A stretch of 64,000 nucleotides of DNA from Escherichia coli (lineage in GTDB: Bacteria; Pseudomonadota; Gammaproteobacteria; Enterobacterales; Enterobacteriaceae), in NCBI RefSeq assembly GCF_044647545.1, contig NZ_CP172818.1, one strand, 5' to 3'. Below the pieces are notes generated by a model, which ran no database searches, was not told the DNA's origin, and saw only the letters and a list, made by a program, of their open reading frames with translations. Below, piece after piece: positions 4,184 to 58,274 of the stretch (the stretch's first letter is position 1; each line of letters starts with the position of its first letter). Made by a program: the position numbers and the translations under genes.

Positions 4184-5686
4184 TTAGCGACGAAATCCGT
4201 AATACACTTCGTTCCAGCGCAGCGCGTCTTTAAACGCTGGCAGGCGGGTATCGTTATCAATCACTGTGATTTCAATGTCGTGCATCTCGGCGAACTGGCG
4301 CATATCGTTGAGGTTCAGCGCATGGCTGAAAACGGTATGGTGCGCGCCACCAGCGAGGATCCACGCTTCGGAAGCAGTTGGCAGATCCGGTTGCGCTTTC
4401 CACAGCGCATTCGCCACCGGCAGTTTCGGCAGGGAGTGCGGTGTTTTCACCGTGTCGATGCAGTTAACCAGCAGACGGTAACGATCGCCGAGATCAATCA
4501 AGCTGGCGACAATCGCTGGGCCGGTTTGGGTATTGAAGATCAGGCGGGCAGGATCGTCTTTACCGCCAATACCGAGGTGTTGAACGTCGAGGATCGGTTT
4601 CTCTTCTACGGCGATCGACGGACAGACTTCCAGCATATGGGAGCCGAGCACCAGGTCATTACCTTTTTCGAAGTGGTAAGTGTAGTCCTCCATAAAGGAG
4701 GTGCCGCCCTGCAGACCGGTTGACATCACCTTCATGATGCGAAGCAGGGCGGCAGTTTTCCAGTCGCCTTCGCCCGCAAAGCCGTAGCCCTGCTGCATCA
4801 GACGCTGTACGGCCAGACCAGGAAGCTGCTTCAGACCGTGCAAATCTTCAAAGGTGGTGGTGAACGCGTGGAAGCCACCTTGTTCCAGGAAACGCTTCAT
4901 CCCCAGCTCAATACGCGCCGCTTCCAGCACGTTCTGTCGTTTTTCGCCGTGGATTTGTGTCGCAGGCGTCATGGTGTAGCAGCTTTCGTACTCATCGACC
5001 AGCGCGTTAACATCGCCATCGCTGATGGAGTTCACTACCTGCACCAGATCGCCAACCGCCCAGGTATTGACGGAGAAACCGAACTTGATCTGTGCGGCAA
5101 CTTTATCGCCATCGGTGACCGCCACTTCACGCATGTTATCGCCAAAACGGCAGACTTTCAGATGACGGGTATCCTGTTTAGATACCGCCTGACGCATCCA
5201 GGAGCCGATACGCTCATGTGCTTGTTTATCCTGCCAGTGACCGGTAACGACGGCATGTTGCTGACGCATACGCGCGCCGATGAAGCCGAACTCGCGACCG
5301 CCATGCGCGGTCTGGTTCAGGTTCATAAAGTCCATGTCGATGCTGTCCCACGGCAGCGCCGCGTTGAACTGGGTGTGGAATTGCAGCAACGGTTTGTTGA
5401 GCATGGTCAGGCCGTTGATCCACATTTTGGCCGGGGAGAAGGTGTGCAGCCACACCACCAGACCAGCGCAACGATCGTCGTAATTCGCGTCACGGCAAAT
5501 AGCGGTGATTTCATCCGGCGTGGTGCCCAGCGGTTTCAGCACCAGTTTGCAGGGCAGTTTCGCTTCCGTATTCAGCGCATTAACGACGTGCTCGGCATGT
5601 TGGGTGACCTGACGCAGGGTTTCCGGGCCATACAGATGCTGGCTGCCAATTACAAACCACACTTCATAATTATCAAAAATCGTCAT
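4184..5686 (-). CDS. araA: L-arabinose isomerase
   Basis: 500-aa [23 protein letters not shown]... Confidence 0.95.
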
Positions 5687-12925: not shown

Positions 12926-13119
12926 GGCGTTAGTGTAGTGATTTTGTTATCAACCAGCAATCATAGAGAAGGCGTATTAAAAAAGCCAATATTCGTTCAG
13001 CTATCAAGGACGTATTTGCATAGCTGGGAAGCTTTGAACCGAAAGAATCCCTTAGCACAGTCAAAATCGGTAATGCAACCTTATTGCGTGAATGACGATT
13101 TTTGACATATTCTTTCAGG

Positions 13120-13712
<593 letters not shown>

Positions 13713-13713
13713 G

Positions 13714-15369
13714 CGATGGATCCGGCGGCGCAAACCACGCTGATTTAAAATCGAACCAGCCGAGGGTGTTCATACGTAGACCGCGCATACTGCGTTGCCC
13801 CTGAATGATCAGCCAGTGGTGGATAAGCGGCACCATTGCTTTGCTGGCGACCAGTTGCTGGCACCAGTTCGCCAGGTTCATTTCGCCATTGCGCCAGCGG
13901 GCGGCGTCGGCTTGCCAGTCGATGGGAAGACAGTGTTGGAGCAGCGGCACCTCGCACAAGTGCGCGAACAGCGAAAAATCCAGCGGCAGCGTAAAGTTGG
14001 CGCTGTTAAGCCAGATATCGCTCTCGATCTCTCCTTCATGCCACTGATCGTAGCTGATCTCTTTGATTTCCAGCGTGACCTGGTGACTTGCCAGAATCTG
14101 CTGCATGATCCCGGCAATCACTCGATGCTCAATATGATCCTGATAAAAGGTCAGGGTGAGGCTTTCCAGCCCGGCGGGTTTTTCGCAATGTGTCGGACGA
14201 GCATGGTGCCAACGGGGGAGCAGTCCATAAGCCGGGAACCACAGTTGCTGGTACTGTTCCTCAGCGAAATAGACCAGATTAGTTGGAGAAAGCACATAGC
14301 TTACCCAGTCCCTGACTTGCTGATTCGCCCCGCGATGGGTGCGGCTGTCGAACAGTAAATAGTAGCAACCTTCCTCCAGGCGGCTTTCAATCTCTTTTTC
14401 CTCGCCCTGTGGCCCTTTTAGCATCAGCCCTCCGGCTGGCTCGTCGGCAATTTCCGGCAGAACCCAGACGTTAACTTCGTCGATTAATGCCCGGTAACCG
14501 AAGAAGTCATCGAATGCCTGAATTTTCAGTTGATTGGTGCTGTTGCGGATCACCGCATACGGACCGGTGCCGATGGGATGGCTGGCAAAGTTACTGAGGG
14601 TTTCCCATTCGCGCGGCAGGATCATCGCCGGAACTTGCCCCAGCAGTAACGGCAACCAGCGATCCGGCTGCGTGAGGTGGATATCCAGCGTCCAGGGCGT
14701 CGGCGATACAATTTCAGCAATATGCGAATAGAGCGGCAGCGTATTGATCCGTTTTAAAGAGGCGATCACATCGTCCATTTCCAGTTCACGACCATGATGA
14801 AAATGGACTCCTGGACGCAAAAAGAAACGCCAGTGAAGCGGTGATATTTGCTGCCAGTGGTGGGCGATGTCTGCTTCCAGTTCCCCATTTTCCTCATTTA
14901 TGCGCGTTAGCGAACTGAAGATTTGCCGGGCGATATGGGTTTCGGAACGACGCAATGCACTGCCGGGCAGCAGATTACGCAACGGACGATAGTAGAGAAC
15001 GCGCAGGATGTGCCGCCCCTGGCGGAAGCTGCGTCCCAGATGAGAAACCAACATTTGCCGCACAGCCGCTTTGTCGCCAACCAGTTGCACCAGTTGATCG
15101 ATACGATCCTGCTCCAGCAGGTCTTCCGCCCGCTGTTGCTGAAGCGCCAGCCCGGTATAGAGGAATGTCAGACGCGAGCGTTTACCGCGCCCGACTTCCG
15201 CTTCCCACGTCAGCCAGCCGCGATCCTGCATGGTGTTGAGCAGGGTGCGCATATGACGACGCGAGCAACTCAGTAACGCTGCCAGTTCGTTGAGCGTGGT
15301 CTCCTGCGATTTACCCTCGCAGCATTGCCACAGGCGGATGAACTGTTGTTGCAGACGAGCAGATGGCAT
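13714..15369 (-). CDS. sgrR: sugar-phosphate stress transcriptional regulator SgrR; 3' end uncertain because the frame runs into the low-complexity tract
   Basis: Track ORF 13660..15390 (576 aa); start set at [15 protein letters not shown]; remembered length 551 aa would place the native stop near 13714, but here the frame continues ...[22 protein letters not shown] into homopolymer sequence. Confidence 0.8.
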
Positions 15370-15436: not shown

Positions 15437-15663
15437 GATGAAGCAAGGAGGTGCCCCATGCGTCAGTTTTATCAGCACTATTTTACCGCGACAGCGAAGT
15501 TGTGCTGGTTGCGTTGGTTAAGCGTCCCACAACGATTAACTATGCTGAAGAACTGATGCAGTGGGAGGGGAGTCATTCTGACTACTGATTTGCGGACATC
15601 ATGTGTGACTGAGTATTGGTGCTAATCGCCACGCCAGCAGTGATTATTGCTGGCTTTTTTCTT
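15437..15663 (+). ncRNA. sgrS: small RNA SgrS (glucose-phosphate stress)
   Basis: Starts gatgaagcaagg 67 bp from the divergent sgrR start; conserved seed gtgtgactgagtattggtg at 15602..15620; hairpin ccagcag/ctgctgg plus T-run at 15633..15663. Confidence 0.8.
15458..15556 (+). CDS. sgrT: small protein SgrT encoded within sgrS, 32 codons here
   Basis: ATG after ggagg RBS; MRQFYQHYFTATAKLCWLRWLSVPQRLTMLKN; shorter than the 43 aa I recall for K-12. Confidence 0.6.
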   Translation: MRQFYQHYFTATAKLCWLRWLSVPQRLTMLKN

Positions 15664-15687
15664 TGGCGATTGAGCCGACGGGACAAA

Positions 15688-22468: not shown

Positions 22469-24193
22469 ATGGAGATGTTGTCTGGAGCCGAGATGGTCGT
22501 CCGATCGCTTATCGATCAGGGCGTTAAACAAGTATTCGGTTATCCCGGAGGCGCGGTCCTTGATATTTACGATGCATTGCATACCGTGGGTGGTATCGAT
22601 CATGTTTTAGTTCGTCATGAGCAGGCGGCGGTGCATATGGCCGATGGTCTGGCGCGCGCGACCGGGGAAGTCGGCGTCGTGCTGGTAACGTCGGGTCCAG
22701 GGGCGACCAATGCGATTACTGGCATTGCTACCGCTTATATGGATTCCATTCCCTTAGTTGTCCTTTCCGGGCAGGTAGCGACCTCGTTGATAGGCTACGA
22801 TGCCTTTCAGGAGTGCGACATGGTGGGGATTTCTCGCCCGGTGGTTAAACACAGTTTTCTGGTTAAGCAAACGGAAGACATTCCGCAGGTGCTGAAAAAG
22901 GCTTTCTGGCTGGCGGCAAGTGGTCGCCCTGGGCCCGTGGTCGTTGATTTACCCAAAGATATTCTTAATCCGGCGAACAAATTACCCTACGTCTGGCCGG
23001 AGTCGGTCAGTATGCGATCTTACAATCCCACGACCTCCGGGCATAAAGGGCAAATTAAGCGCGCTCTGCAAACGCTGGTGGCGGCAAAAAAACCGGTTGT
23101 CTATGTAGGCGGTGGGGCAATCACGGCGGGCTGTCATCAGCAGCTAAAAGAAACGGTGGAGGCGTTGAATCTGCCCGTTGTTTCCTCATTAATGGGGCTG
23201 GGGGCGTTTCCGGCAACGCATCGTCAGGCACTGGGCATGCTGGGAATGCACGGCACCTACGAAGCCAATATGACGATGCATAACGCGGATGTGATTTTTG
23301 CCGTCGGGGTGCGTTTTGATGACCGAACGACGAACAATCTGGCGAAGTACTGCCCAAATGCCACGGTTCTGCATATCGACATTGATCCTACTTCCATTTC
23401 TAAAACCGTGACTGCTGATATCCCGATTGTGGGGGATGCTCGCCAGGTCCTTGAACAAATGCTTGAACTCCTGTCGCAAGAATCCGTCCATCAACCGCTG
23501 GATGAGATCCGCGACTGGTGGCAACAGATTGAACAGTGGCGCGCTCGTCAGTGCCTGAAATATGACTCTCACAGTGAAAAGATTAAACCGCAGGCGGTGA
23601 TCGAGACTCTTTGGCGGTTGACGAAGGGAGACGCTTACGTGACGTCCGATGTCGGGCAGCACCAGATGTTTGCTGCGCTTTATTATCCATTCGACAAACC
23701 GCGTCGCTGGATCAACTCTGGCGGCCTCGGCACGATGGGGTTTGGTTTGCCTGCGGCACTGGGCGTCAAAATGGCGTTGCCAGAAGAAACCGTGGTTTGC
23801 GTCACTGGCGACGGCAGTATTCAGATGAACATCCAGGAACTGTCTACCGCCTTGCAATACGAGTTGCCGGTACTGGTGGTGAATCTCAATAACCGCTATC
23901 TGGGGATGGTGAAACAGTGGCAGGACATGATCTATTCCGGCCGTCATTCACAATCTTATATGCAATCGCTACCCGATTTCGTTCGTCTGGCGGAAGCCTA
24001 TGGTCACGTCGGGATCCAGATTTCTCATCCGCAAGAACTGGAAAGCAAACTTAGCGAGGCGCTGGAACAGGTGCGCAATAATCGCCTAGTGTTTGTTGAT
24101 GTCACCGTCGATGGCAGTGAGCACGTCTACCCGATGCAGATTCGCGGGGGCGGAATGGATGAAATGTGGTTAAGCAAAACGGAGAGAACCTGA
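22469..24193 (+). CDS. ilvI: acetolactate synthase III large subunit
   Basis: Track ORF 22379..24193; start set at [14 protein letters not shown] (574 aa); TPP-dependent enzyme. Confidence 0.9.
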
Positions 24194-48277: not shown

Positions 48278-48365
48278 TAAGACGTTTTCGCCGCATCCGA
48301 CATTCGCACACGATGCCTGATGCGACGCTCCGCCCGCGTCTTATCAGGCCAGCGTCGCATCAGAC
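48278..48365. repeat. REP palindromic unit(s) in the mutT–yacG intergenic region
   Basis: Inverted motifs gcctgatgcgacgct / agcgtcgcatcaga and ggtcagataagacg / cgtcttatcaggcc. Confidence 0.75.
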
Positions 48366-48578: not shown

Positions 48579-49322
48579 TTAGCAACAGGCCAGTTCGAAA
48601 TCCAGACGTTCCGGTACCTGTCCGTTTTCACTGTCCAGCGGCATAAAACGAATGGCAAAACGGCTCTTATGACCGGAAATTTGCGGATAAAGCTGTGAAT
48701 CGAGTGACAGATTCAGGCGCAGCAAGTCGGCATCGCCACCGTTATCCTGATAAAAACCATTCAGGCTGGTTTGTTTACGGAAGGGGGCCGACTGGCGAAT
48801 TAAATCCAGCACCATGGTAAGTGCCTGGGTGAGCGGGTTCAGGCTGGCAATCCAGGTTTCTACCTGGCTGTCGCGCTGCGCCTGGGGTAGATGCAGCCAA
48901 ATGTGCAATGTAGGTAAATCAAAGCTACAACAGCCGCCTGGGATGCTCAGTCGCTGACGCACCAGAGCAATCAAACGATCTTCACGCAGAAATTGCCCGA
49001 TACGCGGCGCGGAAATTAATACGCTCCCCGCCGCTTTTAACTGCTGAATTAATGCTTCAATACGGCTCTGGTCCACGCCGGGCACGCCAATCCAGGTCTG
49101 GAGTTTACGTTGCTGCCGGTCAAGTTCTTTCAACAGCTCAGTGCGGACTTCGCCGCGCTCGAAAACATCCAGTAATTCACTGACATTACGGAAGAAATGC
49201 AGCGCGCCAGCGTGGTCAACGATGGGTAAATTAACGGTAAGTTGCTGAATCAAAAACTCAATGCGCAGCCATGTACGCATTTTTTCATTTAGTGGATGTT
49301 CAAAAAGGACCTGGGTCTGCAT
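48579..49322 (-). CDS. zapD: cell division factor ZapD
   Basis: 247-aa [27 protein letters not shown]... Confidence 0.9.
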
Positions 49323-49942
49323 TACGGTTTTTCCTGTGAGACAAACTGCGACGCAAGCTGCAAATAGTGTGCGTGCAGGCGGGCAACATCCGATGCGATA
49401 GCATCCGGTGCGCCGTTATTATCAATGACGTCATCTGCCACGGCAAGGCGAGCTTCGCGCGGTGCCTGGGCAGCAAGGATTTGTTCGACATGCTCGCGAG
49501 TTACATCATCGCGCTGCATGGTGCGCTTAAGTTGCGTTTCTGGGCTGACATCCACCACCAGCACTCGATTCGCTTTTTTATACAGTGAGTTTTCTACCAG
49601 CAATGGCACAACCCACAGTACATAGGGGGAAGTTGCTTGCTGGATCTGGTGTTGCGTCTCTTGCTGAATCAGCGGATGCAGCAGGGCGTTAAGCCAGTTT
49701 TTCTCTTCCGGGTTGGCGAAAATCCGCTCGCGCAAGGCCCGGCGCTGCAATGTTCCATCAGCAGCAATTATGTTAGCGCCAAAGTGATCAGCAATGGCAT
49801 GTAGCGCAGGTGCACCTGGTTCAACCACCTGACGCGCAATAATATCGGCATCAATGACGTTAATTCCGAGATCAGCAAACGCATTGGCAACGGTACTCTT
49901 GCCACTGCCAATGCCTCCCGTTAAGGCAACTATATACCTCAT
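49322..49942 (-). CDS. coaE: dephospho-CoA kinase
   Basis: 206-aa ORF with P-loop GGIGSGKST. Confidence 0.95.
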
Positions 49943-50166
49943 AATTTATATTCCCGGGAATTCATCATGATTATCAAAACGTTAAAAATGAGCGCACGAA
50001 AGCGAAATTGATGAAACGTTCGCTCACTATTTACCAGGTAAATTTATGGGATTGTAGCGTAAAAAAAGACAATTTCGCAGTCTTGCGCCGCATTGATTAG
50101 TGCGTATGATAGCGTCACTGGAGTTGCGCTCTTACCCTTATAGCCATTAACCCCAGGAATCCGCAC

Positions 50167-51210
50167 ATGCGTATTGAAGAAGATCTGAAGTTAGGTTTTA
50201 AAGACGTTCTCATCCGCCCTAAACGCTCCACTCTTAAAAGCCGTTCCGATGTTGAACTGGAACGTCAATTCACCTTCAAACATTCAGGTCAGAGCTGGTC
50301 CGGCGTGCCGATTATCGCCGCAAATATGGACACCGTAGGCACATTTTCTATGGCCTCTGCGCTGGCTTCTTTTGATATTTTGACTGCTGTGCATAAACAC
50401 TATTCTGTCGAAGAGTGGCAAGCGTTTATCAACAATTCTTCCGCTGATGTGCTGAAACATGTGATGGTTTCTACCGGCACGTCTGATGCGGATTTCGAAA
50501 AAACTAAACAGATTCTCGACCTGAACCCGGCATTAAACTTCGTTTGTATTGATGTGGCGAATGGTTATTCCGAACACTTCGTGCAGTTCGTTGCGAAAGC
50601 GCGTGAAGCGTGGCCGACCAAAACCATTTGTGCTGGCAACGTAGTGACTGGTGAAATGTGTGAGGAGCTTATCCTCTCCGGTGCCGATATCGTTAAAGTT
50701 GGCATTGGCCCAGGTTCTGTTTGTACAACTCGCGTCAAAACAGGCGTCGGTTATCCGCAACTTTCTGCGGTGATCGAATGCGCCGATGCTGCGCACGGTC
50801 TGGGCGGAATGATCGTCAGCGATGGCGGCTGCACCACGCCGGGCGATGTCGCGAAAGCCTTTGGCGGCGGTGCCGATTTCGTCATGCTTGGCGGCATGCT
50901 GGCGGGCCACGAAGAGAGCGGCGGTCGCATCGTTGAGGAGAACGGCGAGAAATTTATGCTGTTCTACGGCATGAGCTCCGAGTCTGCGATGAAACGTCAC
51001 GTTGGCGGCGTTGCGGAATATCGCGCAGCAGAAGGTAAAACCGTTAAGCTGCCGCTGCGAGGCCCGGTTGAAAATACCGCGCGTGATATTTTGGGCGGCC
51101 TGCGTTCAGCTTGTACATACGTTGGGGCTTCACGCCTGAAAGAGCTGACCAAGCGCACCACATTTATCCGTGTGCTGGAACAAGAAAACCGCATCTTCAA
51201 CAACCTGTAA
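50167..51210 (+). CDS. guaC: GMP reductase
   Basis: 347-aa IMPDH/GMPR-family ORF. Confidence 0.95.
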
Positions 51211-51214
51211 TCTC

Positions 51215-51244
51215 CCAACGCTGGCGTGGAGCAACACGCCAGCG
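51215..51244. terminator. hairpin between convergent guaC and hofC
   Basis: aacgctggcgtg ... cacgccagcgtt inverted repeat. Confidence 0.5.
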
Positions 51245-52447
51245 TTATCCCATTCCACTCATCGCATCGCCTAAATGGAAAATTGGCAGATACATTGCCA
51301 CCACCAGCGTACCGATAATTCCTCCCGTTATGATCAGCAACGCCGGTTCCAGTAAGGCTGCGAGGTTATCCGCCAGCGCCAGTGTGTTATCCCGATGATG
51401 ATGGGCGAGGTTGTCTAACATGAGATCCAGCGAGCCGGATGCCTCTCCTGTTCTCACTAATTGCAAACAGAGCGGGCTAAACTCACCGGTATTTTTTAGC
51501 GCCAGCCAGATGGGGTGACCGTTACTGATATCGTGCTGGATTTGTGTCAGAAGTTGCACCCAGTACGGGCAGCGCATTGTTTCTCTGACGCTCTCAACGC
51601 CCTGTAAAAAAGTAATGCCTGCACTTTGTGTCAGCGCCAGAATCGTAAAGATCTGTGTGAGTTTTTGTCCCCGCATCAGTGAACCCATAATCGGGATGCG
51701 TAACAGCAATTTCTGCCGTGCGATAAGCCTGGTTGGGTGGCGCATCAGCAGCTTATTGGCTATCGCCAGCAGAAAGCCGAATAGCACCAGCAACCAACCC
51801 CATTCGCCACTAAAGCTTGCCAGCGTCATGATCCCCTGCGTTAGCGCCGGTAGCGGAGTGTTAAAGGTCTTATAGATAGCGGCAAACTCCGGCAGCACAA
51901 AATGCAGCATTGCCACAACCACCATGATTGCCATCGCTAAAATGATGATGGGATAACGCAACGCTGATTTCACTTTATCGGCTAACTGGCGCTGGGCTTT
52001 TTGCTGACGCGCCAGTTCAAAGCAGCATTCATCCAGCTTACCGGTTAGTTCACCCGTGCGGATCATCGCCTGATAGAGCGGCGGAAATACCTCTGACCAG
52101 GGTAATAAGGCATTGGAAAAAGCAATGCCCTGTTCGAGATCGAGCGCCAGTGATTGCAGCAACGCTTGCCATTGCTTACTGGGATGCTGTTCCGCCAGCA
52201 GTGCCAGCCCTTCAGAAAGCGTTAACCCGGCTTTGAGTAGCGTCGCCAGTTGATGAATGACTTCCGCGCTTTTATCTCCTCGCCACTGCGCAGAATTGAT
52301 GGCGATTCGCTTCAGGCTAAGTGGGGTAACCATCTGTTGCTGTAGTGCTATGAGCAGCAAAGCACGGCTCTCAGCCCATAGCATCCCATCTTGCGCATTG
52401 CCGTCGCCGGTTATGCCATGCCAGCGCCAGAGTTGCTTACTCGCCAT
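51245..52447 (-). CDS. hofC: type IV pilus / T2SS inner-membrane platform protein (GspF/PilC family)
   Basis: 400-aa ORF; synteny hofC–hofB–ppdD. Confidence 0.9.
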   Translation of the reverse strand: MASKQLWRWHGITGDGNAQDGMLWAESRALLLIALQQQMVTPLSLKRIAINSAQWRGDKSAEVIHQLATLLKAGLTLSEGLALLAEQHPSKQWQALLQSLALDLEQGIAFSNALLPWSEVFPPLYQAMIRTGELTGKLDECCFELARQQKAQRQLADKVKSALRYPIIILAMAIMVVVAMLHFVLPEFAAIYKTFNTPLPALTQGIMTLASFSGEWGWLLVLFGFLLAIANKLLMRHPTRLIARQKLLLRIPIMGSLMRGQKLTQIFTILALTQSAGITFLQGVESVRETMRCPYWVQLLTQIQHDISNGHPIWLALKNTGEFSPLCLQLVRTGEASGSLDLMLDNLAHHHRDNTLALADNLAALLEPALLIITGGIIGTLVVAMYLPIFHLGDAMSGMG

Positions 52448-53822
52448 GCGGCATCCCCAATACGCGGATTAACTCTTCAAAGGTGGTTAAGCCTTGCTCC
52501 ACGGCCAGGCAGCCGTTTTCAAAAAGCGTACGCATACCCGCCTGTCGGGCGTGTGTTTCCAGCGATTCAACGTCGGTATTAGCGGAAATAAGCTGGCGTA
52601 TGATCGGTGTTATGGGTAGAACTTCAAATAAGGCCGTACGACCATAAAAACCGTGGTAGCAATGTACACAACCGGGTGCTTGCCAGTGGGGCAGCGGCGA
52701 CGGCCATACATTGTCTGGAATATGGATGGGCTCCTCTTGCTGTCGGCGACAATGTGGGCAAAGTTTACGTACCAGACGCTGGGCTATTACCAGCGTAAGT
52801 GCCGATGAGAGCATCCAGCGAGCAACGCCCATTTGCTGTAAACGCACCAGCGTTTCGCAGGTGGAATTGGTGTGTAGCGTGGACAACACCAGGTGACCGG
52901 TTTGCGCGGCTTTTATGGCAATTTCTGCCGTTTCGCCATCGCGGATCTCTCCGATCATGATGACGTCAGGGTCCTGGCGCAATAACGCACGCAAAACGCC
53001 CTGAAAGGTAAGACCGGCACGCGAATGGATTTGCGTCTGGTTTAGTCCGGCTATGGGGATCTCAACCGGATCTTCGACGCTACAAATATTAATGTCAGCG
53101 GTATTCAGCGTTTGCAGGGCACTATAAAGCGTGACCGTTTTGCCGCTGCCTGTAGGGCCAGTTACCAGCACCAGTCCCTGTGGTTGTTGCAAGGCATGAG
53201 CAAAGTCCGCCAGTTGTAACGGCTGCATCCCCAGCTTGTTGACATCCAGTGCCTGGCTCACCTGCTGTAACAACCTTAATACCACCTTTTCACCACCCCG
53301 GCATGGTAAGGTCGCAATACGAAATGAGACGGCGTTTCCTGCCAGTTCGACAGTGAATTGCCCGTCCTGCGGCAGGCGATGTTCCGCAATATCCAGATTT
53401 CCCAGCACTTTTAATCTGGCGGTTAATGCGACTCCGGCATCCGGTGAAACGTCCGGTAAAGGATGCAATACGCCGTCGATACGCAAGCGGATGCGGTAGG
53501 CATTGTCCGCTGGTTCGATATGAATATCAGACGCGCGTTGTTCCAGCGCAGACTGTAACGTTCGAGTCAGCAACTCTGCTTTGGGCTGATGCTTCTCCTG
53601 AACAGCTACGGGCAATGTCTGTTGTGTGCGACTGGCGTGACCTTCCATTTGTTGGCGCGTCCAGCAGGTGATCTCAATACGTTTGGTGGTAGCGAAATGC
53701 AATGCGTCCAGTAGCTCATGCGAAGGTGCATCGACTACCGCAACATGAACCACCTCTTCGCTGGCATCCAGCAAGACTCCCTGATAACGCAGACACAGGG
53801 CGGTGAGCTGTGGAATATTCAT
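52437..53822 (-). CDS. hofB: type IV pilus assembly ATPase (GspE/PilB family)
   Basis: 461-aa ORF with Walker A GPTGSGKT and a C-terminal Cys cluster. Confidence 0.9.
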   Translation of the reverse strand: MNIPQLTALCLRYQGVLLDASEEVVHVAVVDAPSHELLDALHFATTKRIEITCWTRQQMEGHASRTQQTLPVAVQEKHQPKAELLTRTLQSALEQRASDIHIEPADNAYRIRLRIDGVLHPLPDVSPDAGVALTARLKVLGNLDIAEHRLPQDGQFTVELAGNAVSFRIATLPCRGGEKVVLRLLQQVSQALDVNKLGMQPLQLADFAHALQQPQGLVLVTGPTGSGKTVTLYSALQTLNTADINICSVEDPVEIPIAGLNQTQIHSRAGLTFQGVLRALLRQDPDVIMIGEIRDGETAEIAIKAAQTGHLVLSTLHTNSTCETLVRLQQMGVARWMLSSALTLVIAQRLVRKLCPHCRRQQEEPIHIPDNVWPSPLPHWQAPGCVHCYHGFYGRTALFEVLPITPIIRQLISANTDVESLETHARQAGMRTLFENGCLAVEQGLTTFEELIRVLGMPHGE

Positions 53823-53831
53823 TGCCGCTCC

Positions 53832-54272
53832 TTAGTTGGCGTCATCAAAGCGGAAGACATCTTCGCAGGCTTGCTGCAATGCGCTGTCACTTTGAATATT
53901 GCAGTTGCGCGTCCAGCCGGTGACGCCGTTTGCGTTATCCCAACCCGGCGTCATGACGACGCTTAGCCCATTGAGACTTTCTTGCCCGGTCAGCGACACC
54001 ACGCCCTTTGCCACACTCATGGCTGAAACATAGCGGGTGGTGGTAGGCGAAGGAATGCCATTGCTGCCACCGTCGCAGGTATTTAATCCACCATGTTCCA
54101 GCGCGCACAACTCTACGGCGGTACGGTAAGGCACAAAGGTTTGTAGCATGTCGGTGAGTGCGGCTTTGCGCAGGTAGTTTTGATAAGCGGGAATACCAAT
54201 GGCGCTTAAAATGGCAATGATGCCAATAACCACCATCAGTTCGATAAGTGTAAAACCGCGTTGCTTGTCCAT
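53832..54272 (-). CDS. ppdD: prepilin-peptidase-dependent type IV pilin
   Basis: 146-aa ORF, MDKQRGFTLIELMVVIGIIAILSAIGIP (class III signal peptide). Confidence 0.9.
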   Translation of the reverse strand: MDKQRGFTLIELMVVIGIIAILSAIGIPAYQNYLRKAALTDMLQTFVPYRTAVELCALEHGGLNTCDGGSNGIPSPTTTRYVSAMSVAKGVVSLTGQESLNGLSVVMTPGWDNANGVTGWTRNCNIQSDSALQQACEDVFRFDDAN

Positions 54273-54474
54273 TTGTTTCGCTCCTTGATTTGGTTGGCGC
54301 TACTTTGGCAAACGCCATCAGCACAAGCGAGGGGCAAAAAACGAAACGGGAAAGCAGCTTCCGGAGTTTTTTATTACGTTGCAGCGAAAGACAAGAAATT
54401 TGCGAGGCGTTACGAAGAAAGTTGGGAAAGGGGAGATTATCCGCCCGCGATGGAGCGGATAAATCTGTCAGCAA

Positions 54475-55428
<954 letters not shown>

Positions 55429-55455
55429 TTAGCACCACATATAAGGAGATCCTGC

Positions 55456-56007
55456 ATGTTGTTAGAACAGGGGTGGCTGGCTGGCGCGCGCCGCGTTCCC
55501 TCACCACATTACGATTGCCGCCCGGATGACGAAACACCCACCCTGCTGGTGGTGCACAATATTAGCCTGCCGCCAGGCGAGTTTGGCGGTCCGTGGATCG
55601 ACGCATTATTCACTGGAACTATTGATCCGCAGGCACATCCTTTCTTTGCTGAGATCGCCCATTTGCGCGTCTCCGCTCACTGTTTGATTCGCCGCGATGG
55701 TGAAATAGTCCAGTATGTTCCTTTCGATAAACGTGCCTGGCATGCCGGAGTCTCTCAGTATCAGGGGCGCGAACGCTGCAATGATTTTTCTATTGGGATT
55801 GAGCTGGAAGGCACCGATACGCTGGCGTATACCGATGCGCAGTATCAACAGCTTGCGGCGGTTACGCGGGCACTGATTGATCGCTATCCGGATATCGCTA
55901 ATAACATGACGGGCCATTGTGATATTGCGCCGGATCGGAAAACCGATCCCGGTCCTGCATTTGATTGGGCACGGTTTCGTGCACTGATCAGCAAGGAGAC
56001 AACATGA
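55456..56007 (+). CDS. ampD: 1,6-anhydro-N-acetylmuramyl-L-alanine amidase
   Basis: 183-aa ORF, amidase_2 fold. Confidence 0.9.
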
Positions 56008-56858
56008 CGCTATTTACAACCTTACTGGTGTTAATTTTCGAGCGCCTGTTTAAGTTGGGCGAGCACTGGCAGCTTGATCATCGTCTTGAAGCGTTCTTTC
56101 GGCGGGTGAAACATTTTTCTCTCGGGCGCACATTAGGCATGACCATTATTGCGATGGGCGTGACTTTTTTACTGTTACGCACATTGCAGGGAGTATTATT
56201 CAACGTTCCCACGCTGCTGGTGTGGCTGCTGATTGGTTTGCTGTGTATTGGCGCAGGTAAAGTTCGTCTTCATTATCATGCTTATCTGACAGCTGCTTCA
56301 CGTAATGATAGCCATGCCCGTGCCACGATGGCTGGCGAACTCACCATGATTCACGGCGTCCCGGCAGGCTGCGATGAACGTGAGTATTTGCGTGAGCTGC
56401 AAAATGCATTGCTGTGGATTAACTTTCGTTTTTATCTTGCACCGCTGTTCTGGCTGATTGTGGGGGGAACCTGGGGACCCGTTACGCTGATGGGGTATGC
56501 GTTTTTGCGTGCATGGCAATACTGGCTGGCGCGTTACCAGACGCCGCATCATCGTTTACAGTCCGGCATTGATGCCGTGCTTCATGTACTGGATTGGGTG
56601 CCGGTTCGTCTTGCGGGTGTGGTATATGCCTTGATCGGTCATGGGGAGAAAGCGTTACCGGCCTGGTTTGCTTCGCTGGGTGATTTCCATACTTCGCAAT
56701 ATCAGGTATTAACGCGTCTGGCGCAGTTCTCTCTGGCGCGTGAACCGCATGTCGATAAGGTGGAGACGCCGAAGGCAGCGGTTTCCATGGCGAAGAAAAC
56801 CTCGTTCGTGGTCGTGGTGGTAATTGCGCTACTGACGATTTACGGGGCGTTGGTGTAA
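56004..56858 (+). CDS. ampE: AmpE inner membrane protein
   Basis: Start set at [15 protein letters not shown] (284 aa), overlapping the ampD stop. Confidence 0.9.
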
Positions 56859-56867
56859 AGATTATTG

Positions 56868-56891
56868 CCCTCACCCTGCACGGGTGAGGGC
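56868..56891. terminator. hairpin between convergent ampE and aroP
   Basis: ccctcaccc tgcacg ggtgaggg inverted repeat. Confidence 0.5.
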
Positions 56892-56900
56892 GTAGAGAGA

Positions 56901-58274
56901 TTAATGCGCTTTTACGGCTTTGGCGGTTTTCTCTTTAAACAGATAGCCGATACCTAACACGATCAGCCATACCGGGATCAGGTATACCGAAATCGCCATT
57001 CCTGGGGTCATCAGCATAATCACCAATACCGCCGCCATAAACAGCAGGCAGATCCAGTTACCCAGCGGATAAAGCAGAGCAGGGAAGCGAGTTACCACGC
57101 CTTGTTCCTGCTTGGCGCGACGGAATTTCATATGCGCCAGGCTAATCATCGCCCAGTTGATGACCAGTGCAGATACCACCAGCGCCATTAACAGGCCGAA
57201 TGCGGATTCCGGTGCAAGGTAGTTAATCAGCACGCACAATGCCGTAACCAGCGCAGACACCAGAATAGTATTAACCGGTACACCGCGTTTGTCGACAGAC
57301 GCCAGCGCTTTTGGCGCGTTGCCCTGTTGTGCCAGACCAAACAGCATACGGCTGTTGCAATATACGCAGCTGTTGTACACGGAGAGCGCCGCAGTCAGTA
57401 CCACGATGTTCAGCGCATTTGCCACAAAGGTATCGCCTAACTCGTGGAAGATCAGCACAAACGGGCTGGTGTCAGCGGTAACGCGTGTCCACGGCATCAG
57501 TGAGAGCAGAACGGCTAACGAACCAATGTAGAAAATCAGGATGCGGTAGATAACCTGGTTAGTCGCTTTTGGAATACTTTGCTCCGGGTTATCTGCTTCT
57601 GCTGCGGTGATGCCCACCAGTTCCAGACCACCGAAAGAGAACATGATAATCGCCATCATCATCACCAGCCCGGTGAAGCCGTGCGGCAGGAAACCACCCT
57701 GATCCCACAGGTTGCTAACGGTCGCCTGCGGGCCGCCGTTGCCACTGAATAGCAGCCAGCCGCCGAAGATGATCATCGCTACCACCGCGATAACTTTGAT
57801 AATGGCAAACCAGAACTCCATCTCGCCAAACACTTTTACGTTTGTCAGGTTGATGGCGTTGATCACCACAAAGAACACGGCGGCAGAAACCCAGGTGGGG
57901 ATTTCCGGATACCAGAACTGAATGTATTTACCCACGGCAGTCAGCTCTGCCATGGCAACTAAAACGTACAGTACCCAGTAGTTCCAGCCAGAGGCGAAAC
58001 CGGCAAAACTGCCCCAGTATTTATAAGCAAAGTGGCTAAAGGAGCCTGCGACAGGTTCTTCGACCACCATTTCACCTAGCTGACGCATGATCAGAAAGGC
58101 GATAAAACCAGCAATGGCGTAACCCAGGATAATCCCTGGCCCTGCAGACTGTATTACGGAGGCGCTACCCAGGAATAGCCCGGTCCCTATCGCGCCACCC
58201 AGCGCGATAAGCTGAATATGGCGGTTTTTAAGGCCGCGCTTTAGCTGCTCGCCGTGCTGTTGACCTTCCATCAT
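56901..58274 (-). CDS. aroP: aromatic amino acid:H+ symporter (APC family)
   Basis: 457-aa polytopic ORF, MMEGQQHGEQLKRGLKNRHIQLIALGGAIGTGLF. Confidence 0.95.
   Translation of the reverse strand: MMEGQQHGEQLKRGLKNRHIQLIALGGAIGTGLFLGSASVIQSAGPGIILGYAIAGFIAFLIMRQLGEMVVEEPVAGSFSHFAYKYWGSFAGFASGWNYWVLYVLVAMAELTAVGKYIQFWYPEIPTWVSAAVFFVVINAINLTNVKVFGEMEFWFAIIKVIAVVAMIIFGGWLLFSGNGGPQATVSNLWDQGGFLPHGFTGLVMMMAIIMFSFGGLELVGITAAEADNPEQSIPKATNQVIYRILIFYIGSLAVLLSLMPWTRVTADTSPFVLIFHELGDTFVANALNIVVLTAALSVYNSCVYCNSRMLFGLAQQGNAPKALASVDKRGVPVNTILVSALVTALCVLINYLAPESAFGLLMALVVSALVINWAMISLAHMKFRRAKQEQGVVTRFPALLYPLGNWICLLFMAAVLVIMLMTPGMAISVYLIPVWLIVLGIGYLFKEKTAKAVKAH

Follow-up and report, generated by a model that had tools for sequence, protein, structure and literature searches.

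An intact ppdD-hofB-hofC operon in Escherichia coli, very probably encoding the core of a chromosomal type IVa pilus

Do the three minus-strand genes that lie between guaC and nadC in this E. coli genome encode the core of a pilus machine that could still be built, or one that has been silenced for good? The region belongs to a stretch of 64,000 nucleotides, hereafter the window, and we consider it very likely that these genes form an undamaged ppdD-hofB-hofC (hcpABC) operon, which supplies the core of the type IVa pilus encoded on the E. coli chromosome. As such it is an ordinary feature, already known, and adds little that is new. The original prediction described a compact minus-strand operon adjoining nadC, and its exact limits are borne out by the list of open reading frames (Table 1). 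That this is the known E. coli pilus locus also holds: gene order, strand, lengths, start and stop codons, junctions and position between guaC and nadC are those of b0108, b0107 and b0106 in K-12 MG1655, as are the hairpin beyond hofC and the candidate CRP-S site ahead of ppdD.

Table 1. Features of the ppdD-hofB-hofC locus, in window coordinates.
Feature	Position	Strand	Size	Description
ppdD (hcpA)	53832-54272	minus	146 aa, 441 nt	open reading frame starts MDKQRGFTLIELMVVIG; type IVa major prepilin
hofB (hcpB)	52437-53822	minus	461 aa, 1386 nt	PilB/GspE-family hexameric assembly (extension) ATPase
hofC (hcpC)	51245-52447	minus	400 aa, 1203 nt	PilC/GspF-family polytopic inner-membrane platform protein
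nadC-ppdD intergenic region	54273-54474	minus	202 nt	holds the ppdD promoter
Candidate CRP-S (Sxy-dependent CRP) site	54401-54416	minus		TTCGTAACGCCTCGCA; from motif match and position
Hairpin	51216-51247	undefined	13-bp stem	guaC/hofC convergent spacer; overlaps the hofC stop codon

The genes are tightly packed. The Shine-Dalgarno sequence of ppdD (AAGGAG) lies 8 nt 5' of the ATG. A gap of 9 nt separates ppdD from hofB, whose own Shine-Dalgarno sequence overlaps the ppdD stop codon (TAAGGAG), and the last 11 nt of hofB are shared with hofC; such junctions suggest translational coupling. Upstream, nadC (54475-55368, on the minus strand like the operon) stands 202 nt from ppdD, and a single promoter in this spacer would drive all three genes. 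At the other end guaC converges on hofC and stops at position 51210, leaving a spacer of 34 nt.

The three products had been read as a prepilin, a GspE-family ATPase and a GspF-family platform protein, and both their Pfam domains and their NCBIfam equivalogs, all above cut-offs and far beyond chance, agree. PpdD reaches 269.1 bits on the NF007862 equivalog (cut-off 138; residues 1-145 aligned in the NCBIfam profile search) and carries the Pfam N_methyl and Pilin domains, the former (PF07963) at 39.9 bits (cut-off 21.2). Its proposed class III signal peptide is complete, with a six-residue leader, MDKQRG, followed by FTLIELMVVIGIIAILSAIGI, Gly at -1, Phe at +1, Glu at +5, a mature start of FTLIELMVV and a hydrophobic segment at residues 9-27. 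Indeed, chain A of PDB 6GV9, the solved type IV pilus of EHEC, begins at F7, and from there the alignment runs with 138 of 140 residues identical. Cysteines at mature positions 50, 60, 118 and 130 provide both of the disulfide pairs described in bioRxiv 10.1101/2021.04.14.439816, including that of the C-terminal loop, C50-C60 being the extra enterobacterial pair, and all of the reported interface and calcium-site residues are kept (K30, D35, E53, H54, E92, E131, D132, R135 and D137). Both disulfides recur in the pilin of EHEC O157:H7 hcpABC (PDB 6GV9/6GMS), as do the residues of the interface and the calcium site; what sets the two pilins apart is a pair of surface substitutions, D58N and A115T (mature numbering). 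Compared with K-12 there is a single substitution, D64N, and Asn64 recurs in two of the six other E. coli genomes sampled (631 and Ecol_AZ146). By analogy, PpdD would be cleaved and N-methylated by a prepilin peptidase and polymerised into a filament, as has been demonstrated for near-identical proteins; sxy induction yields a processed PpdD of 15 kDa and makes DNA uptake detectable (PMC3330819).

HofB matches the NF007755 equivalog of NCBIfam at 824.3 bits (cut-off 617) and the Pfam domain PF00437 (T2SSE) at 488.9 bits (cut-off 24.9). It carries a Walker A motif (GPTGSGKT, 222), an Asp box (EDPVE, 250), a Walker B motif (VIMIGEIRD, 287), a His box (GHLVLSTLH, 309) and a tetracysteine zinc motif made of two CxxC pairs (CPHC at 355, CVHC at 385). 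The solved structures nearest to it are the PilB ATPases 5ZFR, 5TSG and 3JC8 (E about 1e-106), with GspE/EpsE slightly behind. Compared with canonical PilB, some 100-160 residues are missing from the N-terminal end of HofB: the protein stays below the cut-off of the PilB equivalog TIGR02538 (488.8 bits against 675.65), matching that profile at positions 163-561 only, and residues 8-69 give a weak, partial match to MshEN. Judged by these profiles, HofB is a shorter, separate subfamily predicted to work like PilB. HofC, in turn, matches the NF007861 equivalog of NCBIfam at 651.7 bits (cut-off 401) and Pfam PF00482 (T2SSF) twice (191 bits), and its hydrophobic segments, at 167-185, 212-230 and about 355-393 (the last being two adjacent peaks), fit a protein with three membrane spans. 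Its best solved relative is the PilC of Myxococcus xanthus in 3JC8 (E 4e-44).

RefSeq names hofB 'gspE' ('type II secretion system protein GspE'), a misleading pointer to type II secretion. Could the three genes nonetheless be what this name implies, components of a type II secretion system that exports folded proteins? GspE and GspF profiles do match well (HofB on TIGR02533 at 458.5 bits, HofC on TIGR02120 at 260.7 bits), and the Pul secretion system of Klebsiella can assemble PpdD (PMC2649431). However, both proteins miss the equivalog cut-offs, which stand at 630.25 and 424, and PpdD scores 29.3 bits on the GspG model TIGR01710, for which 88.85 are required. Moreover, a type IV pilus built of PpdD has been solved, the structures nearest to HofB are those of PilB rather than GspE, and the operon is adjoined by guaC and nadC and not by gspC, gspD or gspG-M. 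On these sub-cut-off scores and non-gsp neighbours we reject the secretion reading, to which we give next to no credence.

With the PilA-PilB-PilC proteins of Pseudomonas aeruginosa, M. xanthus and Geobacter the operon shares the functions of pilin, extension ATPase and platform, along with the ATPase motifs; it departs from these canonical systems in the C50-C60 disulfide, typical of enterobacteria, in the union of the three genes in one operon, and in control by Sxy and CRP-S rather than by PilSR. The competence pilus operons pilABCD of Haemophilus influenzae and Vibrio cholerae are orthologous pilin-ATPase-platform operons under Sxy (TfoX) and cAMP-CRP at CRP-S sites (PMC1635313). Unlike these, the operon described here has no prepilin peptidase gene (pilD), and DNA uptake in E. 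coli is very low, with no natural inducing condition known (PMC3330819).

How, then, might these parts work together? The promoter would stay silent unless Sxy (TfoX), the competence regulator, aids cAMP-CRP at a non-canonical CRP-S site. Once made, the prepilin would enter the inner membrane, where a prepilin peptidase encoded elsewhere would cut after Gly6, and a HofB hexamer docked on the HofC platform would polymerise PpdD into a filament. The unlinked genes hofMNOPQ (alignment complex and secretin) and ppdAB-ygdB-ppdC (minor pilins) would complete the machine, and the filament may serve to take up DNA at a low level and, in certain pathotypes, to adhere. For this scheme our analysis supplies gene identity, intactness, motifs, purifying selection, species-wide conservation and conservation of the promoter with K-12, and the literature supplies the dependence on Sxy and CRP, the assembly of pili and the uptake of DNA; for this particular strain, pilus function is what we infer. 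The operon is not self-sufficient. A set of 13 genes that includes ppdD, hofB and hofC suffices for pili (bioRxiv 10.1101/856302), and three of the 13 are found here, the remainder lying outside the window. The annotation of the nearest complete genome lists hofMNOPQ, ppdAB-ygdB-ppdC, yggR and a Peptidase_A24 gene as intact; that genome lacks a gsp operon of the K-12 type, and the peptidase gene at this place, next to bfr, encodes only 155 aa. We did not locate pppA in that genome, where a pheV-linked island interrupts the expected region, and these points speak against taking the processing of PpdD in this lineage for granted.

The operon had also been predicted to be intact, a claim to be checked against the reference proteins, and in that comparison it has no frameshifts, truncations or internal stops. 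Nucleotide identity to K-12 is 99.3% for ppdD, 96.4% for hofB and 96.3% for hofC; HofB carries seven substitutions and no stop, and HofC twelve and no frameshift. Some residues are unlike those of every other panel genome, namely K196 and E363 in HofB and L102 and A156 in HofC, the lineage-specific changes being T196K, G363E, H102L and T156A, respectively. Elsewhere, stretches of the window are visibly badly assembled. At the locus itself, assembly error is ruled out as the source of the state of the reading frames by the complete identity (100%) of a 3.6 kb stretch to an independent complete genome, that of E. coli FDAARGOS_497. The nearest genomes are those of ST648-type human and animal isolates of the extraintestinal type.

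Intactness is a real result here, because hofB and/or hofC are damaged in two of the six other E. coli genomes sampled. Should the operon then be seen as a decaying relic, still open-reading, contributing nothing to fitness and on its way to pseudogenes? Inactivated alleles do exist: of 5426 complete genomes, at least 363 carry a hofB nonsense allele, W380*, detected as an exact 61-mer. In strain SMN152SH1, from cattle, a 12-nt deletion takes the residues IRDG out of the Walker B motif of HofB, and hofC is frameshifted as well. The operon is also without expression under laboratory conditions, and dN of hofB and hofC is 2-6 times that of the nearby housekeeping genes guaC, nadC, coaE and ampE. 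Against this, dN/dS is far from neutrality (0.05-0.17), whether measured against K-12 (ppdD 0.15, hofB 0.05, hofC 0.13) or on a seven-genome panel (0.17, 0.07 and 0.12, respectively). Of the 5426 complete E. coli genomes, 5423 contain 80% or more of the 3.6 kb stretch, with gene lengths conserved, and all catalytic motifs are intact in the window. Furthermore, the induced genes give pili and DNA uptake (PMC3330819; bioRxiv 10.1101/856302), and a UPEC mutant in hofQ, a gene of the same system, is defective in kidney colonisation (PMC2649431). We regard decay as very unlikely, and keep to an intact operon under purifying selection.

Within the operon, the genes differ in dS: on the small panel ppdD, at 0.03, shows the same degree of conservation as the housekeeping genes around it, and hofB and hofC, at about 0.10, are 2-3 times higher. 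It seems unlikely, though worth stating, that the pilin gene and the assembly genes (hofB, hofC) are under different evolutionary regimes. If they were, PpdD might function without HofB and HofC, for example if a type II secretion machine assembled it, or perhaps loss of pilus extension has been selected in some clones, in which case the allele in the window would represent the 'competent' state of a polymorphism.

The locus had been called cryptic and poorly expressed in the laboratory, and the latter fits the literature. In K-12, the ppdD transcript is undetectable without Sxy and rises 90-fold with it, in strict dependence on CRP and cAMP (PMC1635313), and none of 72 ECOR strains produced PpdD in culture (PMC3330819). 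The qPCR amplicon of PMC1635313 lies inside hofB (window 53393-53501), so the Sxy-induced transcript covers hofB. 'Cryptic' is apt in the sense of silent unless Sxy and cAMP-CRP are present; in the sense of dead or defunct it is not, for pili form in EHEC and from the 13-gene set.

Does the promoter of this strain keep what that regulation needs? The nadC-ppdD spacers of this strain and K-12 are equally long, and 7 of the 202 bases differ, all of them outside the candidate CRP-S site. This site combines a core matching at three of five positions (TTCGT) with a perfect one (TCGCA) and is the sole sequence in the intergenic region with two or fewer mismatches to TGCGA-N6-TCGCA, the cores of the 22-bp CRP-S site; it has two. 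Across the window the motif is not enriched (27 matches against a shuffle mean of 48), and the motif alone is no evidence. The site is, however, identical in K-12 and falls within the fragment bound by CRP in a band-shift (PMC1635313), which corresponds to approximately 54357-54486 in the window when placed via the primers of that study and an ungapped alignment to K-12. It is by its position and its identity in K-12 that it stands as a candidate. A promoter scan of the locus detected no sigma-70 consensus promoter (-10/-35), which fits an activator-dependent promoter but also counts against the proposed scheme.

At the far end of the operon, the hairpin in the guaC/hofC spacer folds as RNA at -25.2 kcal/mol (z = -3.3), none of 200 shuffles being as stable, and its sequence is identical in K-12; it is probably a transcript end shared by both converging genes. 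A terminator scan of the locus returned only weak intragenic matches and missed this hairpin, which is without a clear U-tract, and an Rfam scan of 49000-57000 (E <= 1) found no RNA family.

Once assembled, what would the filament be for? Perhaps the same machine serves this lineage chiefly in adherence and virulence, as the 'hemorrhagic coli pilus', and not in DNA uptake. In EHEC O157:H7, PpdD (HcpA) pili allow the cells to adhere and invade and induce cytokines (PMC2920817; PMC2649431), the two pilins differ at just 2 of 140 residues, and the closest genomes are those of human and animal extraintestinal-type isolates. The demonstration of pili on minimal casein medium (PMC2649431) concerns EHEC. 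On the other hand, Sxy, an activator of competence, is the only regulator that has been defined (PMC1635313), and no pili were observed in UPEC under many conditions (PMC2649431). The sequence cannot discriminate between the two roles, which are not mutually exclusive, and adherence as the main role strikes us as possible but rather doubtful.

Whichever role prevails, the strain carries an undamaged type IVa pilus core, the prerequisite both for Sxy-induced DNA uptake and for adherence by PpdD pili. Nearly every E. coli genome has the operon, and purifying selection acts on it, yet a good number of sequenced genomes share a fixed nonsense allele of hofB, so that its intactness in any strain needs to be checked and not assumed.

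Judged by curated profiles, the identity of PpdD, HofB and HofC is beyond doubt. Each scores above the cut-off of its own NCBIfam equivalog (table below), and the Pfam matches (N_methyl and Pilin in PpdD; T2SSE at 489 bits and, weakly and only in part, MshEN in HofB; two T2SSF repeats in HofC) confirm the prepilin, GspE-family ATPase and GspF-family platform protein of the original prediction. The prepilin signal proposed for PpdD is there, with G-1, F+1 and E+5, and cysteines lie at mature positions 50, 60, 118 and 130. PpdD is identical at 138 of 140 positions to the solved EHEC type IV pilus subunit 6GV9, whose chain starts at PpdD F7, and keeps all of the residues reported for the subunit interface and the calcium site (bioRxiv 10.1101/2021.04.14.439816). 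HofB carries Walker A GPTGSGKT (222), Asp box EDPVE (250), Walker B VIMIGEIRD (287) and His box GHLVLSTLH (309), followed by CPHC (355) and CVHC (385); its nearest solved structures are the PilB ATPases 5ZFR, 5TSG and 3JC8, with GspE just behind, and that of HofC, which has three hydrophobic regions, is Myxococcus PilC.

The locus is already known: it is the ppdD-hofBC of K-12 and the hcpABC of EHEC, and works like both the type IVa PilA-PilB-PilC core and the competence pilus operon controlled by Sxy (TfoX) in Haemophilus and Vibrio. Lacking the PilB N-terminal region, HofB falls short of the canonical PilB equivalog (489 bits where 676 are needed, matching from profile position 163), and is therefore placed in a separate HofB subfamily. 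Type II secretion, to which the RefSeq label 'gspE' for hofB would point, is rejected on the profile scores and the gene neighbourhood.

An ORF listing of 49500-56500 returned exactly the limits first given for the three consecutive genes. The compact operon described beside nadC is also upheld: 9 nt separate ppdD from hofB, whose ribosome-binding site shares bases with the ppdD stop (TAAGGAG), and hofB has 11 nt in common with hofC. GC is 0.52-0.54 across the locus, and with so unremarkable a base composition there is no sign of foreign DNA. The mechanical nadC ORF (54475-55410) is 311 aa long, 14 codons more at its 5' end than the annotated 297 aa, and nadC stops at TGA in the window and TAA in K-12; both differences are without consequence.

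Features of the pilus locus and of the window (profile scores in bits, cut-off in brackets; changes and dN/dS relative to K-12)
Feature	Position	Strand	Description	NCBIfam equivalog	Score	aa changes	dN/dS
ppdD	53832-54272	minus	146 aa ORF, begins MDKQRGFTLIELMVVIG	NF007862 'prepilin peptidase-dependent pilin'	269 (138)	1 (D64N)	0.15
hofB	52437-53822	minus	461 aa ORF	NF007755	824 (617)	7	0.05
hofC	51245-52447	minus	400 aa ORF	NF007861 'protein transport protein HofC'	652 (401)	12	0.13
nadC	54475-55368	minus, as ppdD	202 nt upstream of ppdD
guaC	50167-51210	convergent with hofC	34-nt spacer to hofC
qPCR amplicon	53393-53501		within hofB
Band-shift fragment	~54357-54486
Candidate CRP-S site	54401-54416		TTCGTAACGCCTCGCA
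Homopolymer-rich stretch	13115-13740 (+ 13079-13124)		~600 nt, long A and G runs
Deletion cluster	15647-15682		eight 1-2-nt deletions
Insertion	48330-48331		2 nt

Frameshifts or truncations would have spoken against an intact locus, and a codon-by-codon comparison with K-12 MG1655 (b0106-b0108, the same genes at identical lengths) showed that all three match in length, start codon and stop codon, with no stop inside any of them and every diagnostic motif present. By megablast, at least 80% of 51000-54600 occurs in 5423 of 5426 complete E. coli genomes, the matches always being annotated guaC, hofC, gspE (=hofB), ppdD and nadC; the region is 100% identical in the nearest complete genome, FDAARGOS_497.

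The genomes that match the window best are FDAARGOS_497 and ST648-type strains. FDAARGOS_497 differs from it in places, and outside the pilus locus the window clearly has corrupted stretches. Where the homopolymer-rich stretch lies, the closest genomes have espY2, which encodes a T3SS effector, and the 3' end of sgrR, and the window's sgrR ORF runs out into a poly-Phe/Lys tail; low-quality assembly seems to be the source, not biology. From 13717 to 64000 identity to FDAARGOS_497 is otherwise 99.98%, and the deletions relative to that genome that cluster in the sgrS/sgrT area, right after sgrR, and the insertion between mutT and yacG are probably sequencing or assembly errors.

What might such an operon do? 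The poor laboratory expression first ascribed to it agrees with the literature: PpdD was found in 0 of 72 uninduced ECOR strains, and sxy induction yields processed PpdD and detectable DNA uptake (Sinha and Redfield, PMC3330819). EHEC makes PpdD (HcpA) pili on minimal casein medium, and EHEC hcpABC expressed in K-12 brings PpdD to the cell surface (PMC2649431). The three genes are necessary parts, not a complete machine, and no pilus partner genes lie within the 64,000-nt window. The annotation of FDAARGOS_497 has hofMNOPQ, ppdAB-ygdB-ppdC and the PilT-like yggR intact; between rpsJ and bfr this genome lacks the K-12-type gsp operon (gspA-N), and all that remains there is a 155-aa gene (22578-23045 of locus L013) with a complete Peptidase_A24 domain (GYGD motif). 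A search for pppA in this genome did not locate it; PpdD processing in the lineage may fall to the 155-aa gene or to pppA.

A scan of the locus found no sigma-70 consensus promoter, as expected of an activator-dependent one. In K-12, binding of CRP to the fragment upstream of ppdD is weak but specific, and Sxy raises the transcript 90-fold with a strict requirement for CRP and cAMP (Cameron and Redfield, PMC1635313). The 'ppdD' qPCR primers of that paper are its hofB primers, so the Sxy-induced RNA extends over hofB, in favour of one operon. The band-shift fragment holds only one CRP-S-like sequence (an Sxy-dependent CRP site), identical in K-12, which we put forward as a candidate because of its two mismatches. 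At the other end, a 13-bp hairpin in the guaC/hofC spacer (-25.2 kcal/mol, z = -3.3), also identical in K-12, probably ends both convergent transcripts.

We fetched six E. coli genomes spread over the identity ranking. With the window, they gave mean dN/dS values of 0.17 (ppdD), 0.07 (hofB) and 0.12 (hofC), so all three are under purifying selection. In the same panel dS is ~0.10 in hofB and hofC against 0.03-0.05 in ppdD, guaC, nadC, coaE, ampD and ampE, a synonymous diversity ~2-3x that of ppdD and the flanking genes; this is most simply read as weak selection on codon usage in genes that are seldom expressed. The machine is damaged in other strains. In SMN152SH1, from cattle, a 12-nt in-frame deletion takes IRDG out of Walker B in HofB, and hofC has a +1 frameshift at nt 218; these lesions inactivate the pilus machine independently of the hofB stop that follows. 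In Ecol_AZ146 hofB carries the internal stop W380* (TGG to TGA; position 4185 of locus L004, window 52684) and is annotated a pseudogene; ppdD is intact in this one carrier examined. The 61-mer with the W380* codon has exact matches in 363 of 5426 complete genomes, and a sizeable sequenced group therefore has an inactivated pilus ATPase: intact hofB and hofC are not a trivial result in E. coli.
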